Shown piece by piece: positions 33,333 to 40,398 of a DNA stretch of 64,000 nucleotides. The position numbers and the translations under genes are program-made. Positions within the stretch are counted from its first letter, which is position 1; every line of letters starts with the position of its first letter. Under the pieces are notes generated by a model. The model was given only the letters and a program-made list of their open reading frames with translations, did not search any database and was not told where the DNA came from. Source of the DNA: Escherichia coli (lineage in GTDB: Bacteria; Pseudomonadota; Gammaproteobacteria; Enterobacterales; Enterobacteriaceae); the NCBI RefSeq assembly GCF_003334405.1, contig NZ_QOWM01000002.1, one strand, 5' to 3'.

Positions 33333-34193
33333 ATGAAACAACACCAATCGGCGGATAATTCTCAGGGCCAGCTTTACATTGTACCGACGCCAATCGGCAA
33401 TCTGGCGGATATCACCCAGCGTGCGTTAGAGGTATTACAGGCCGTTGATCTGATTGCCGCCGAGGATACTCGTCACACCGGTTTATTGCTGCAACATTTT
33501 GGGATTAATGCCCGGTTGTTTGCGCTGCACGACCATAACGAACAACAAAAAGCTGAAACGCTGCTGGCGAAGCTGCAAGAGGGGCAAAACATTGCGCTGG
33601 TTTCCGATGCCGGAACGCCGCTAATTAACGATCCTGGCTACCATCTGGTGCGTACCTGCCGTGAAGCGGGGATCCGCGTGGTGCCGCTACCCGGGCCGTG
33701 TGCTGCTATCACTGCGTTAAGCGCAGCGGGTTTACCCTCTGACCGTTTCTGTTACGAAGGCTTTTTACCTGCCAAATCAAAAGGCCGCCGTGATGCGCTA
33801 AAAGCCATTGAAGCGGAGCCGCGCACGCTGATTTTTTATGAATCTACCCACCGTCTGTTAGATAGCCTGGAAGATATCGTTGCGGTATTAGGCGAATCCC
33901 GCTACGTGGTTCTGGCGCGTGAGCTGACCAAAACCTGGGAAACCATTCACGGCGCGCCCGTTGGCGAGCTGCTGGCGTGGGTAAAGGAAGATGAAAACCG
34001 TCGCAAAGGCGAAATGGTGCTGATTGTCGAAGGTCATAAAGCACAGGAAGAAGACTTACCCGCCGATGCCCTGCGCACGCTGGCGCTGCTACAGGCAGAA
34101 CTGCCGCTGAAAAAAGCGGCGGCGCTGGCCGCAGAAATTCACGGCGTGAAGAAAAATGCGCTGTATAAGTATGCGCTGGAGCAGCAGGGGTAA
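33333..34193 (+). CDS. rsmI: 16S rRNA (cytidine1402-2'-O)-methyltransferase
   Basis: 286-aa ORF; motif [14 protein letters not shown]; divergent from lpoA. Confidence 0.92.
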
Positions 34194-34202
34194 CAGTGCC
34201 GA

Positions 34203-34240
34203 AGCGTTGCGTTAATCAAAACGCAACGTCTTCTTTTACC
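34203..34240. terminator. Hairpin between convergent rsmI and yraK (possible bidirectional terminator)
   Basis: aaGCGTTGCGTTaatcaaAACGCAACGtcttctttt. Confidence 0.4.
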
Positions 34241-35327
34241 GCACGATGACGGTAATGGTGGCTGTGCCCTGAAATTTTCCTGTTTCCAGCTCACCACCGA
34301 CCAGATTAACTGGCCAGGCGCGCATATTGACGGTGCCATGCCCGGAAGGATCAACGGGAAGGATACCGTTCTGAAAAGGAATATTTGCAACTCCGCCGCC
34401 GAGATTTTCAATACGAATACCGACATCGGGCACATTGTCTGAACTTCTTCGCCTGGCGACCAGGTTGTACTGGTCTACTACCCCAGTTGTACCGTCGATG
34501 CGCATTTGCAACGAGTTTTTAATCTTTGAAGTATCACCACAGTCATAAGTGATATCAAAGTCTACTGGAGTAAAACCGTCTGGCATGGCATTGCGGGTGG
34601 TAAACTTCTGACCATTGATGAATCCAAAATTAACCTTAATAACATCGCCCTGATTAATTTTGCACGACTGTGGGGCGGTGAGATTTCCCTGAATCGATAA
34701 CTTGACTAAATCATGGAAGTCACCTGTAGACGGGCTTCCCATTCCATCGACCCACGCGCCTTTAATGACGGCAATATCCGTTTTCGGAATGGTCATCGAG
34801 CCGAGAAATGGCTTGGTGACATACAGGGTAAAGGTGGTGTTCGCACCAATATTAACGGGTCCATAACGAGACGTATCACCCTGGCAAACACCCGTTTGGG
34901 TTGCAGCAGAATATACCGTGTTGTTTTTTATCTGTGTGAATCGGGTGTTAACAGAGACAACCTGGTCGGTTGTGAGTCCTGGAATGTCGTTTGCCTGTAA
35001 TGTGGTTTTAATATCCAGGCTGTCATTGAGTTTGTAATATCCTGTCTGATGTCCAGTGGTGGTAAGTACGGGGCTGACCATATAGACAAGTTTAACTGCC
35101 TTACCCGCAGAGCAGGAACAGGCGTATTGCCAGTTAGTGCTACTTAGCGTTGCAGAGGTAAACTCCCGTCCTGTCACGTTATCTGTCTGGTTCACCGTAA
35201 CATCATCAACCACACTGCTGTAATTTGTCGCACCGCTAGTGCTGTCGGCTCCACACCCTCCTGAGGAGGCATAAGCGCAGGATGTGGATATCAACAAAAG
35301 ACCTGTTATAAGAGGCGCTCTTTTCAT
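34236..35327 (-). CDS. yraK: fimbrial adhesin-like protein of chaperone-usher fimbriae
   Basis: Track ORF 34236..35585 trimmed to MKRAPLITGLLLISTSCAYA (signal peptide); last gene after the usher. Confidence 0.8.
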   Translation of the reverse strand: MKRAPLITGLLLISTSCAYASSGGCGADSTSGATNYSSVVDDVTVNQTDNVTGREFTSATLSSTNWQYACSCSAGKAVKLVYMVSPVLTTTGHQTGYYKLNDSLDIKTTLQANDIPGLTTDQVVSVNTRFTQIKNNTVYSAATQTGVCQGDTSRYGPVNIGANTTFTLYVTKPFLGSMTIPKTDIAVIKGAWVDGMGSPSTGDFHDLVKLSIQGNLTAPQSCKINQGDVIKVNFGFINGQKFTTRNAMPDGFTPVDFDITYDCGDTSKIKNSLQMRIDGTTGVVDQYNLVARRRSSDNVPDVGIRIENLGGGVANIPFQNGILPVDPSGHGTVNMRAWPVNLVGGELETGKFQGTATITVIVR

Positions 35328-35337
35328 TTTTTTATCC

Positions 35338-37854
35338 TTAATGGCACTGCGCTGTGCCTTGTAATACAGAGGTTGTAGGTTCTGAATCCGGTGTACTGAA
35401 AGCAAACTGACATTGTTGATCTGCCTGATTTCCCCAGCGTACAGTCCAGCTTTGTGATTTACTCGATATCCCAGAGAGATATAGTATGCCGCCCTCATCG
35501 ACGATACTTTGTTGCCCTGTATCATCGTTGCTGGCAAGAGCGCCAAAGGGCAACGGTTTACCGTTGCGATCGCTGACTGTAACAAGTACGCGATAACCGA
35601 TATTGGCGTTGAAACGCGCCGCTACCATTGCACCTCTGTTGGGCACCACAAACTGTGTTGTTTGTTCAAGATCGACGTTATCGGGCAGCTGCGTAGTATC
35701 TACCGAGAGACGGTTTTCCTGATAAGTTGTGAGATAAGGAACCACTGCATAGCCAAAAGGATCGGTAGCAATCCCCGGATAGTTTTGTATCCTCACGCCA
35801 GATGCTCCGTTAGCATCGATAAGCGCAAAAGCGTTGCCCAGATATTGCGAGAGCGTCACGCCATGAGGATGGATAACCACGCCGCCGGTAACGCCGTAAT
35901 TGTATTGGCTGCTGTCATTACCGTAGCTGTATCCGGCACTGAAGGTGCCATAAGGTGAACGGTAACTGGCGTTCAGGCTACTGTTATGGTTGTTATCGTC
36001 ATCCAGACTTTGTTCCAGGCTATAGCTCAGGCGACCATCATCCAGCAGTGAGCCATCAAGACGCATTTCATGTTGGGTTGGGCGATCTTTCTGGCTGGTC
36101 ATCTGATAGGAAACCCGGCTACGCGGTAACCAGCGTTCTAACGGAATACTGAGATTCAAAGAGAGTGCGCGGTCATTATTTTGATCAGTGTAGCGGCTGT
36201 ATTGATAATTCAGGCTGTAACCAACTCCCCATTGCTGGCCGGAAACCCCAACAGAGATATTCCTGTTTTTATCGTTATTGCCCCAATAGTCTTGCTGCGA
36301 ACCGGAGGCATACAGACTTACCCCATCAAATATTGTCTGGCTGATGTTGAATTGAATTTCACTTTTTTGGCGACTGTTATAGTCCCAATTGCGGGTATTG
36401 GCTTCATTAAAACTAAAATAGCCATCGTTGGTATAGCGATAGTAGCTGACAGCGATATTGGTGTTGGTTTCCGGGATATCTTTGATGTACTGCGTACGCC
36501 ATTGATAGCCATGAAAAGAGTGCTGGTTATCGAATTGGGTGTCAGCTCTGTTGATATCCATCGACAACGCGCCCAGTGCGCCAAGTGTGCCGCCGATACC
36601 GATCCCCAGCGCATAATAATCTTCAGAACCGAGCAGGCCGCCATACAGCGTAAAAGTATTATTCAAACCATATATTGCCGTGGCTTCAGCAAATTCGGGT
36701 TCCTTGCTATCACTGTTTGCATCAGCGCGATAGCGTCCAGCGGTCGCGCTATACTTTAGATGCCCAGGTCGCTGCATCATGGGTAATGAAGAATAAGGCT
36801 GGATAAAGCGACGTTGTGTACCGTCACTTTCTTCAATCGTGACTTCTAAATCGCCGCTGTTGGAAGAGGGGTAGAGATCGTTAATTTCAAAGGCACCCGC
36901 TGACACGTTGCTTTGATAGATCACATAACCATTTTGCCTGATAGTCACGATTGCACTACTGTTTGCGATACCGCGTACCGTTGGGGCAAATCCGCGCTGG
37001 CTGTTTGGCAACATATTATCGTCGGAAGCGAGTTGCACGCCAGTAAAGGTGTAGCTGGAAAAAATACTGCCGCTGGTGGCGCTTTCTCCCAGAAGCAACT
37101 GAGACTTCAACGCCTTGATATCACGTTGTAAATAACTACTGATGGTATTCCAGCTTGATGTCTGATCGTTGCGTGTCCATGTGGAATAGTTGCGTAATCG
37201 CCAGGGGCCAAAATTAGCACCATTTTGCATATTCAGGTACTGTCGTTGGCTACGATTGCCCTGGCGGTAACGGTTATCAGAACCTGTAAACGAGTAGTTG
37301 GTAAACAGCGTTGGTATACCATCGTCCCAACGAGAAGGGGAGACGTAACCTCTTGCATCACGGTACAGTGCAATTTGGGGAATGCTCAAATTAAGTTGCT
37401 GATGATTGAAATCAAATTCAGCAGCTGTACCGGGAATGATTTGTTCAAGCGAGTTGATCACGCTATCGTCATCTTTTTCAGCCAGCGCCGGGATTTCATC
37501 CACCTTAATACCCAGCTCACGTAGTTGTTCTACCGTAAACTGTGGCTGCAGAAGTTGCTCTGCATTGGCGGTAAATGTAATTTTTTTCTGTGAAACCTTC
37601 TTTTTATTCAGCCAGATATCAACCTGATAAGTTCCTGGTAGTTGTGCATATTTTTTTGAAAAACGCGACAGATCGGTTGTTTGCATACCACTTTTTGTGG
37701 TTTCCAGCATAATGGGGTCGAAATAATACTCTTCGGCGTTAGCGGTAGTGCAAAGCATGCCGCTGCCAGTGAGCACCATCGGCAAACAACGTTTGATGAT
37801 GAGCGCCAACTGTTTCGGTGTGCGTTTATGTCCCTGGTGGTGTCGTTGTGGCAT
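35338..37854 (-). CDS. yraJ: fimbrial outer-membrane usher protein
   Basis: Track ORF 35338..37929 trimmed to MPQRHHQGHKRTPKQLALIIKRCLPMVLTGSGMLCTTANA; FimD/PapC-like size. Confidence 0.88.
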   Translation of the reverse strand: MPQRHHQGHKRTPKQLALIIKRCLPMVLTGSGMLCTTANAEEYYFDPIMLETTKSGMQTTDLSRFSKKYAQLPGTYQVDIWLNKKKVSQKKITFTANAEQLLQPQFTVEQLRELGIKVDEIPALAEKDDDSVINSLEQIIPGTAAEFDFNHQQLNLSIPQIALYRDARGYVSPSRWDDGIPTLFTNYSFTGSDNRYRQGNRSQRQYLNMQNGANFGPWRLRNYSTWTRNDQTSSWNTISSYLQRDIKALKSQLLLGESATSGSIFSSYTFTGVQLASDDNMLPNSQRGFAPTVRGIANSSAIVTIRQNGYVIYQSNVSAGAFEINDLYPSSNSGDLEVTIEESDGTQRRFIQPYSSLPMMQRPGHLKYSATAGRYRADANSDSKEPEFAEATAIYGLNNTFTLYGGLLGSEDYYALGIGIGGTLGALGALSMDINRADTQFDNQHSFHGYQWRTQYIKDIPETNTNIAVSYYRYTNDGYFSFNEANTRNWDYNSRQKSEIQFNISQTIFDGVSLYASGSQQDYWGNNDKNRNISVGVSGQQWGVGYSLNYQYSRYTDQNNDRALSLNLSIPLERWLPRSRVSYQMTSQKDRPTQHEMRLDGSLLDDGRLSYSLEQSLDDDNNHNSSLNASYRSPYGTFSAGYSYGNDSSQYNYGVTGGVVIHPHGVTLSQYLGNAFALIDANGASGVRIQNYPGIATDPFGYAVVPYLTTYQENRLSVDTTQLPDNVDLEQTTQFVVPNRGAMVAARFNANIGYRVLVTVSDRNGKPLPFGALASNDDTGQQSIVDEGGILYLSGISSKSQSWTVRWGNQADQQCQFAFSTPDSEPTTSVLQGTAQCH

Positions 37855-37882
37855 TCCCTGATGACCTGTGTTTTTATATTTT

Positions 37883-38578
37883 TTATTGCAGTGGACGAGT
37901 TTCTGTCCCGGAACTGCCGCCATAATCATTGATCGCAGCCCATTTCACGTTCTTTCCGCCAGATGCAGGAAGTGGTAACTGTTTATGTTCTCCGGGCGCG
38001 ATATATTCAATTTTGCTTGTGAGATCGGTTTTATCGACTGCCAGTCCGGCAAATACGACGTAATATTCAGTTGGGTTATATATATTGAGTGAATGGTCAC
38101 TACGTTTAAATTCCAGTGATTTCCACGCATCGTTTACCCGTCCCTTCAGGTGTGCGGGGCGATAAAACATTTTGATCCGTGTTTTAAATACCAGCGTCAA
38201 CTCGTTAGCATTAACATCATCTGATTTTTTCTTTGCTGGAATGGCACGAACATTAATGTAGAACAGCGACTCTTTATTTTCAGGCAGGTTATCAGCTGTT
38301 TTAATAATTCGCAGTGATGAGTCATCGCCAGCCTCAAGACGAAATAGCGGTGGGGTTATAATAAATGGGGCACGGCTTTTACCATCTATATTATCTACCC
38401 ATGATTGCAGTAAATAAGGCGTTTCTGCGCCTTTGTTTGCGACAGGTAACGCAGCCTCTTTGCGGCTGGCATCATAGATCACTCGCGTTCGCTGTAAAAC
38501 GATTCCTCCTGCAAGCGCCTGGCCAATACAGAAGCTACACAACAAGGTTAATATCACCGCGAATGTTCGTTTTGACAT
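37883..38578 (-). CDS. yraI: fimbrial periplasmic chaperone (PapD-like)
   Basis: 231-aa ORF with signal peptide [23 protein letters not shown]. Confidence 0.88.
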
Positions 38579-38657
38579 AGTTATTTTTCAACCTGATACA
38601 ACGAGAAAGAGGAAGGAAAAGGGCGTTATCTGACAGGTCAGATAACGCCCTAACGTA

Positions 38658-39242
38658 TTAACGGTAATCCAGCGTTACGTTAACGATAGCGTCTGCTTCC
38701 CCTGGGGTGATTTCTGATGGAACTACGGTTGATACGTAGTAAGCGATGAGGTCAACATTGACAATACCATTGGATTCCGCCGGGATCTGATAAACCGTGT
38801 TATCATTGCCCATAGCATTCAGTGGCATAATGTTTCCGCTTTCCGCATCGTCAATACGGATACCCACACCTGTTGCCGCTATGCCAGCAAAAGAGCCTAC
38901 TTTTGCCAGATTAGGGAAGTTAGGGACGGTGCCATTATCTCGCGTTTCCAGCCATAGACGGAAAGACGCTTCAACGTTGCCGTTATCGTGCTCCCACCCA
39001 GTCATTGGGCAGTTAACTAAAGGAATAGTGAATGGAATTTTTGGGCTACGCTCGCCAATATTACGAAACTGTTCGGCATTATAGTGACCAAGAGCAACTT
39101 CAATTTTCTTATCAGAGTCATTGATTTCACAAGCGGATTTTAAAATCTCGCCATCAAAAACTATTTCACCATCGGTTGCAGCGGCATTACCTGCGAAAAG
39201 CGCAAGTAAGCCCGCAATAGCTGTTTTTGTAACTTTATTCAT
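38658..39242 (-). CDS. yraH: fimbrial major-subunit-like protein
   Basis: 194-aa ORF with signal peptide MNKVTKTAIAGLLALFAGNAAA; first gene of the operon, preceded by a 400-bp AT-rich region. Confidence 0.85.
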   Translation of the reverse strand: MNKVTKTAIAGLLALFAGNAAATDGEIVFDGEILKSACEINDSDKKIEVALGHYNAEQFRNIGERSPKIPFTIPLVNCPMTGWEHDNGNVEASFRLWLETRDNGTVPNFPNLAKVGSFAGIAATGVGIRIDDAESGNIMPLNAMGNDNTVYQIPAESNGIVNVDLIAYYVSTVVPSEITPGEADAIVNVTLDYR

Positions 39243-39642
39243 ATATAACCTTATCCTTGTAACAAGTACATAATCATATTTAATGTGAATATATGTTCAA
39301 CATCTTTAAAGATTATACAGGCAGAAATATTTCATTGAACATTAAATAGACTGAACTTTAAGATTATATTTATATGCAAATATTTGATATTTTCATTATA
39401 TTGATATCAATTTTCTATGTATTCAAAAGAGTATAAATGCCTGACTTTGCTGCGCCAGGGGGCGAGTCAGAATACGAGGTGATTTATTAATAGAACAAGT
39501 TATATGTATATCTAAAATTAAATTGTTGAACATAACTCCTTTTGCTATCGGCGTTATGTTCAACCCAGTCAAATGTTATTTAATATAATGCGTGACTGTT
39601 ACATAAGTTAATTTAAACATTTTGAGCAAATTTTTCATCTGG

Positions 39643-40398
39643 TTAGGTGTTAATTAAACAAATAAAGTTACTGTGCAGCCATAAAAATGAAGCCGGGATA
39701 GCGGTAGAGACTTTAGCCGTGAGAAAACGATCTGTCGCATCCTGCTTTCCTTCGCCAGTCACCAGTAACAAAACTTCGCGGGCATTGAGAATATCCTTCA
39801 GGCCTAAGGTGATCCCACGAGTCACGGGGCGACCCGCGGTTTTTAACATCTCATGTTGCTGTGTTCTGGCATCAAGTTGACTGATATGGCAGGCCGGTTG
39901 CAGGCTTTCTCCCGGTTCGTTCAGCCCAAGATGACCGTTTTTCCCCAATCCGAGAACGCATAAATCCAGACCGCCTTTGCGCGCAATCAGGTTCGTTACC
40001 CGTTCGCACTCTGTCTCATTTATCTCTTCGGAGCGAAAGCTGATGAGCTGGTCTTCACGTAGCCCCAGCGGCTGCACGATATGCTGTTGCAGGAAAGTTT
40101 CGCAGGTGCCTGGCATCGTTAATGGCAGATCCACCCATTCGTCGAGCTTCACGAAGGTGAGCTGGCTGACATCAACCTGCTGCTGGTGGATTTTTTCTAC
40201 CAGATAATGATACGTCAGTAATGGCGTGGCTCCGGTCGCCAGGCAAATCACGGCATTCGGTTTGCTACGGATCACGGCCAATAAATATTCGCTGGCACGT
40301 TCACTTAACGCCGTATAGTTTTCAACTTGCTGAAGGGTTTGCACAGGATGAAATTCCTTAAGTAAAGAGGCACCACCAGACGCAGTGCCTCGTTCCAT
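39643..40398 (-). CDS. agaI: galactosamine-6-phosphate deaminase/isomerase (NagB-like)
   Basis: 251-aa ORF; last gene of the aga operon. Confidence 0.88.
   Translation of the reverse strand: MERGTASGGASLLKEFHPVQTLQQVENYTALSERASEYLLAVIRSKPNAVICLATGATPLLTYHYLVEKIHQQQVDVSQLTFVKLDEWVDLPLTMPGTCETFLQQHIVQPLGLREDQLISFRSEEINETECERVTNLIARKGGLDLCVLGLGKNGHLGLNEPGESLQPACHISQLDARTQQHEMLKTAGRPVTRGITLGLKDILNAREVLLLVTGEGKQDATDRFLTAKVSTAIPASFLWLHSNFICLINT

Follow-up and report, generated by a model that had tools for sequence, protein, structure and literature searches.

The yraHIJK locus of an Escherichia coli genome: a chaperone-usher fimbrial operon with a predicted LpfD-like tip adhesin

Locus and gene organization

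The window analysed is a 64,000-nucleotide stretch of Escherichia coli DNA (RefSeq assembly GCF_003334405.1, contig NZ_QOWM01000002.1), in which positions 34236-39242 run exactly from the stop codon of yraK to the start codon of yraH. Sequence identity to the K-12 genes, together with shared synteny, identifies this region as the E. coli yraHIJK locus. The genes are as follows.

38658-39242, minus strand: yraH, 194 amino acids, presumptive major fimbrial subunit
37883-38578, minus strand: yraI, 231 amino acids, PapD-like periplasmic chaperone
35338-37854, minus strand: yraJ, 838 amino acids, outer-membrane usher
34236-35327, minus strand: yraK, 363 amino acids, predicted two-domain tip adhesin
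33333-34193, plus strand: rsmI, convergent with yraK, with 42 bp between the two

The first-pass annotation had described four same-strand genes for a pilin, a PapD-like chaperone, an usher and an adhesin-like protein, convergent with rsmI, and this arrangement was borne out by the intact reading frames, by the Pfam domains of the products and by the exact coordinates of both the operon and rsmI. The operon is flanked by rsmI and agaI, as in K-12, and the surrounding window differs from K-12 MG1655 in carrying a complete aga cluster with agaE and agaF, like strain ML35.

No internal stop codon was found in any of the four yra reading frames, either in the open reading frame list or with our own script. 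The 5.5-kb region is 100 % identical to that of strain ML35 and differs from that of a K-12 strain by 1 nucleotide in 5,501 bp, at position 35518, where the base change leaves the YraJ protein unaltered. The RefSeq protein accessions of YraH, YraI, YraJ and YraK are those of a K-12 strain (WP_001045432.1 in the case of YraH), and the yraK DNA is 100 % identical to that of MG1655. Exact alignment, which had been proposed as the means of detecting decay, thus brought up no frameshift or premature stop, and yraHIJK is here an intact and already catalogued operon that had been correctly read.

The mechanically called yraK reading frame (34236-35585) begins with a TTG codon, encodes 449 amino acids and overlaps the end of yraJ by 248 nucleotides. 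Its 5' portion is the following feature.

35328-35585, minus strand: spurious 86-codon extension of the mechanical yraK frame, within the 3' end of yraJ (449 versus 363 amino acids)

That this frame is 86 codons too long, with the true start at an internal Met, had been noticed in the first reading and agrees with the RefSeq start, with an AAGGA ribosome-binding site just upstream of the internal ATG, with the typical signal peptide that follows from this Met (MKRAPLITGLLLISTSCAYA, then SS after cleavage), and with the lengths of full-length homologues from other genera, which comprise 353 to 375 amino acids and start at the internal Met. The mechanical yraJ frame reaches 37929 and carries 25 surplus codons overlapping yraI. 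Sec signal peptides, whose prediction had been proposed as a check for all four proteins, were recognised on each by a heuristic search for a hydrophobic core and an AXA site.

Pilin, chaperone and usher

The yraH gene has an ATG start and the ribosome-binding site AAGGATAAGG, and its product contains a single Fimbrial domain (PF00419, residues 27-193, Pfam E 8.6e-28). The YraH signal peptide ends in GNAAA directly before the mature N-terminus TDGEIVFDGEIL, which forms an N-terminal extension with alternating hydrophobic residues; a comparison by eye with FimA suggests a donor-strand pattern. The relatives of YraH in the PDB are FimI, FimA and FimF. YraH is the sole canonical pilin of the operon and presumptively the major fimbrial subunit.

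YraI contains PapD_N (E 5e-41) and PapD_C (E 1e-11) domains in Pfam and aligns over its whole length with mature FimC, from FimC residue 1 onwards (E 1e-43). In this alignment R32 and K136 of YraI correspond to the subunit-anchoring pair Arg8 and Lys112 of FimC, and the F1-G1 loop region has one residue more than that of FimC and is no longer than this; the signal peptide ends in GQALA, followed by GG. YraJ carries PapC_N (E 3.6e-45), Usher (E 7e-216) and PapC_C (E 7.6e-19) domains in Pfam. Its top NCBIfam matches are usher models including LpfC, all below the equivalog cut-off, it matches the FimD model with E 8e-195, and its 838 amino acids compare with 831 to 833 for ushers in related operons. 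Read from its genes, by which it is known here, yraHIJK is predicted to be a complete, minimal classical chaperone-usher system with a chaperone of the FimC-like short-loop type.

Upstream spacer and hairpins

Four elements were noted outside the coding regions.

39243-39642, minus strand: AT-rich regulatory region upstream of yraH, 27 % G+C
39382-39410, minus strand: predicted sigma-70 promoter TTGATA-17-TCAAAT, about 140 nucleotides upstream of the yraH ATG
38620-38651, minus strand: hairpin with a 14-bp stem between yraH and yraI, from terminator scan and folding
34204-34229, both strands: hairpin in the 42-bp rsmI-yraK gap, -18.0 and -19.1 kcal/mol, z -4.7 and -3.7

The G+C fraction of the spacer upstream of yraH is 0.27, against 0.50 for the whole window. 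Between agaI and yraH, genomic SELEX has recorded both a mark for H-NS and a constitutive promoter for RpoD (PMC3946193), and the promoter sequence printed there is an exact match at 39382-39410. The spacer is likely a target of H-NS silencing. The promoter scan returned 8 candidates, compared with 10.6 in shuffled sequence, and the terminator scan 7, compared with 6.2, neither being an excess; reliance is placed only on the published promoter and on the pair of strong hairpins. Between 34,000 and 39,700 no Rfam family reached threshold for a structured RNA, and the spacer contains zero Dam GATC sites of the pap-like kind. A phase-variation switch was considered and rejected, as no fimS-like invertible element was present and the short AT-rich repeats round the promoter were at chance level. 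A hidden regulator or small open reading frame in the 400-bp spacer was likewise discarded, the spacer holding only unsupported AT-rich frames of 20 to 50 amino acids.

The whole 87-nucleotide stretch between yraH and yraI has a minimum free energy of -26.2 kcal/mol (z -5.2). The tail past the stem is UUUUCCUUCCU, and since its U-tract is interrupted (UUUUCC), termination there is unproven. A hairpin followed by a U-run occurs at the same position, with different sequence, in the corresponding operons of Escherichia whittamii and Citrobacter. The yraH-yraI hairpin is probably a partial terminator or an mRNA-stabilising 3' structure, while the hairpin in the rsmI-yraK gap, to judge from its predicted folding, is probably a bidirectional terminator for these convergent genes.

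Domain structure and fold of YraK

YraK is twice the size of a pilin, and its PF00419 match is confined to the C-terminal part.

34704-35267, minus strand: predicted receptor-binding (lectin-type) domain of YraK, residues about 21-208
34242-34697, minus strand: pilin domain of YraK, residues 211-362, Fimbrial PF00419 E 1.4e-30

The pilin domain is preceded by the lectin domain and has no donor strand of its own, which is the layout expected of the first subunit at the tip. An AlphaFold2 model of YraK had a mean pLDDT of 82.9. Its best Foldseek matches in the PDB were all two-domain tip adhesins, with LpfD first (E 2.4e-20), and the best fold matches of the N-terminal domain were the receptor-binding domains of LpfD, MrkD, GafD/F17G, UclD and AtfE. 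The model places YraK among the two-domain tip adhesins of the LpfD structural type.

The description of YraK as an adhesin-like tip protein in the first-pass annotation is sustained by its separate N-terminal domain, its C-terminal PF00419 match and its fold matches. Comparison with FimH and PapG structures had also been suggested; the adhesin fold was confirmed, but LpfD, and not FimH or PapG, proved to be the right comparator. FimH and PapG were rejected as models on score, YraK failing both the FimH test of NCBIfam NF011746 (a score of 472 bits or more, with a lectin domain of the FimH type) and the PapG adhesin test (a PapG-type lectin domain). Against the LpfD equivalog NF011753 it scored 75.6 bits, short of the curated cut-off of 412 bits, and YraK is LpfD-like in fold and not an LpfD orthologue. 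Because all NCBIfam matches fall under the equivalog cut-offs, no named orthologue function is transferable to the Yra proteins. The receptor had been taken as not established, and this stands: the literature found reports none for Yra or YraK, the fimbria is termed "less characterized" in PMC6033998, and the 2021 fimbria glycan array covered type 1 with P, F1C, Yqi, Mat/Ecp, K88 as well as K99, and left Yra out (PMC8545135).

Distribution and integrity in E. coli

The operon occupies a discrete islet.

34190-39673: yra islet, 5,484 bp by comparison with E. coli genomes that are without it

Homology to the ST131 strain Ecol_AZ159 ends at 34189 and restarts at 39674, and at this site Ecol_AZ159 has 99 bp instead of the islet, with agaI straight after rsmI. 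Matches to yraK were found in 3522 of the 5426 complete E. coli genomes (3184 of them over at least 80 % of yraK length), and at least 80 % of the 5.5-kb yra query was present in only 3274, so that the operon is missing from approximately 35 to 40 % of complete E. coli genomes. An O157 strain has a 358-nucleotide frameshifting deletion in yraK, which is broken in O157:H7, IS elements split the operon in several strains, and in Shigella flexneri both yraH and yraJ exist as pseudogenes (PMC6854044).

Such absences and interruptions are what would be expected of a decaying relic that looks intact in this strain, makes no fibres and is being lost from the species, and the growth advantage of MG1655 deletion mutants over the wild type, in a passage of PMC8174762, points the same way. 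This explanation is nevertheless unlikely. All four genes are full length here, with ribosome-binding sites, signal peptides and conserved functional residues, and the yraK alleles of matching genomes are 95 to 100 % identical at the DNA level. Transcripts of yra have been found in clinical uropathogenic isolates of phylogroups A and B1 and in HUS-associated STEC (PMC4128348, PMC6033998), and the operon is functional once expressed in the accounts of citing papers. In those accounts, Korea et al. 2010 described yra as a cryptic yet functional operon that helps in attachment to bladder cells (PMC12711010, PMC4128348); on bladder-cell adhesion the citing passages disagree, PMC12711010 attributing it to Yra and PMC6033998 crediting Ybg and Yfc.

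Comparison with related systems

The listing in PMC8174762 gives yraHIJK as one of 12 chaperone-usher operons in MG1655. Type 1 fimbriae (fimAICDFGH, with the adhesin FimH) share the assembly pathway, as seen in the conserved anchor residues of YraI and FimC and the match of YraJ to FimD. The Lpf system (lpfABCDE) provides the closest adhesin fold in LpfD (PDB 5AFO), but identity between YraK and LpfD is just 21 to 24 %, and the yra operon is without an lpfE-type minor subunit and lies at another chromosomal site. Yra is a paralogue, and not an orthologue, of the Lpf system. A YraJ clade characterised by LpfD-like adhesins is on record (PMC5717340); Wurpel et al. 2013 do not use the word Yra in their main text. 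Whereas the Fim, Pap and Lpf systems have an adaptor or terminator subunit, the yra operon has none, and the details of fibre architecture are therefore assumed.

Operons of E. whittamii and Citrobacter portucalensis have the four-gene layout of yra and a hairpin after the first gene, and their proteins are 48 to 66 % identical to E. coli Yra, compared with 96.5 % for RsmI. The E. whittamii operon adjoins rsmI, as does yra, whereas the Citrobacter copy is at the hca/glyA locus. When E. coli was searched for a nearer counterpart to the E. whittamii operon, the best match was yra itself, at about 66 % DNA identity. Allelic replacement as the meaning of the published mutual exclusion of YraJ and UshC was unsupported, the ST131 site being empty and no nearer E. 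coli counterpart having come up. The rsmI site holds yraHIJK in E. coli of phylogroups A and B1, nothing in an ST131 (B2) strain and a Citrobacter-like version in E. whittamii. It is suggested tentatively, as a possibility that we do not favour, that the rsmI stop-codon site is a swap point at which whole yra-type cassettes are gained, lost or exchanged among Escherichia lineages.

The part of YraK that diverges most is its lectin domain, with 38 % identity to the E. whittamii protein, compared with 63 % for the pilin domain; a module in contact with a ligand would be expected to diverge faster in this way. The adhesin of some chaperone-usher systems is the major subunit itself. That YraK has instead a structural or initiating role, such as merely priming usher activation, with any adhesion through the YraH shaft, might be proposed because no ligand is known and no well-defined sugar pocket could be checked here in the LpfD-type domain, but this divergence and the resemblance of the N-terminal domain to the receptor-binding domains of proven adhesins make it highly improbable.

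Proposed mechanism

The overall best explanation is that yraHIJK is a chaperone-usher fimbrial operon working as set out here, which we consider very probable. Gene integrity, domains, chaperone anchor residues, adhesin fold, hairpins, AT-rich spacer and population distribution are shown by the analysis; family knowledge suggests the assembly order, the placing of YraK at the tip, and silencing as well as attenuation. Sec signal peptides would export all four products, and in the periplasm YraI would bind both YraH and YraK through donor-strand complementation. YraJ would open the outer membrane, accept YraI-YraK first and then polymerise YraH below it by donor-strand exchange. The product would be a YraH fibre with a single YraK at the tip, the LpfD-like N-terminal domain of which may bind a host or surface ligand. 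Transcription would begin in the spacer of 27 % G+C that lies upstream of yraH and would normally be off, most likely through H-NS, and the hairpin after yraH probably allows the yraH message to exceed that of the assembly genes.

Significance

The Yra operon was already known, its cryptic state, patchy distribution and LpfD-like adhesin all having been published, and as an entry in every catalogue of E. coli fimbriae it matters little as a discovery. The analysis confirms the gene starts, against mechanical frames of yraK and yraJ that are both overlong, provides LpfD rather than FimH or PapG as the structural template for YraK, and gives binding studies a delimited receptor domain, at residues about 21-208. 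What YraK binds and what turns the operon on are questions of modest relevance, given that yra is transcribed in some clinical isolates, that the operon tells phylogroups apart and that variation in yraK took first place by feature count when O157:H7 clinical outcome was studied by machine learning (PMC12711010). If the rsmI site were indeed a swap point, the Yra-type fimbriae of different lineages would differ in the ligands that they recognise, and a receptor class as yet unexplored would be defined by YraK, beside LpfD.

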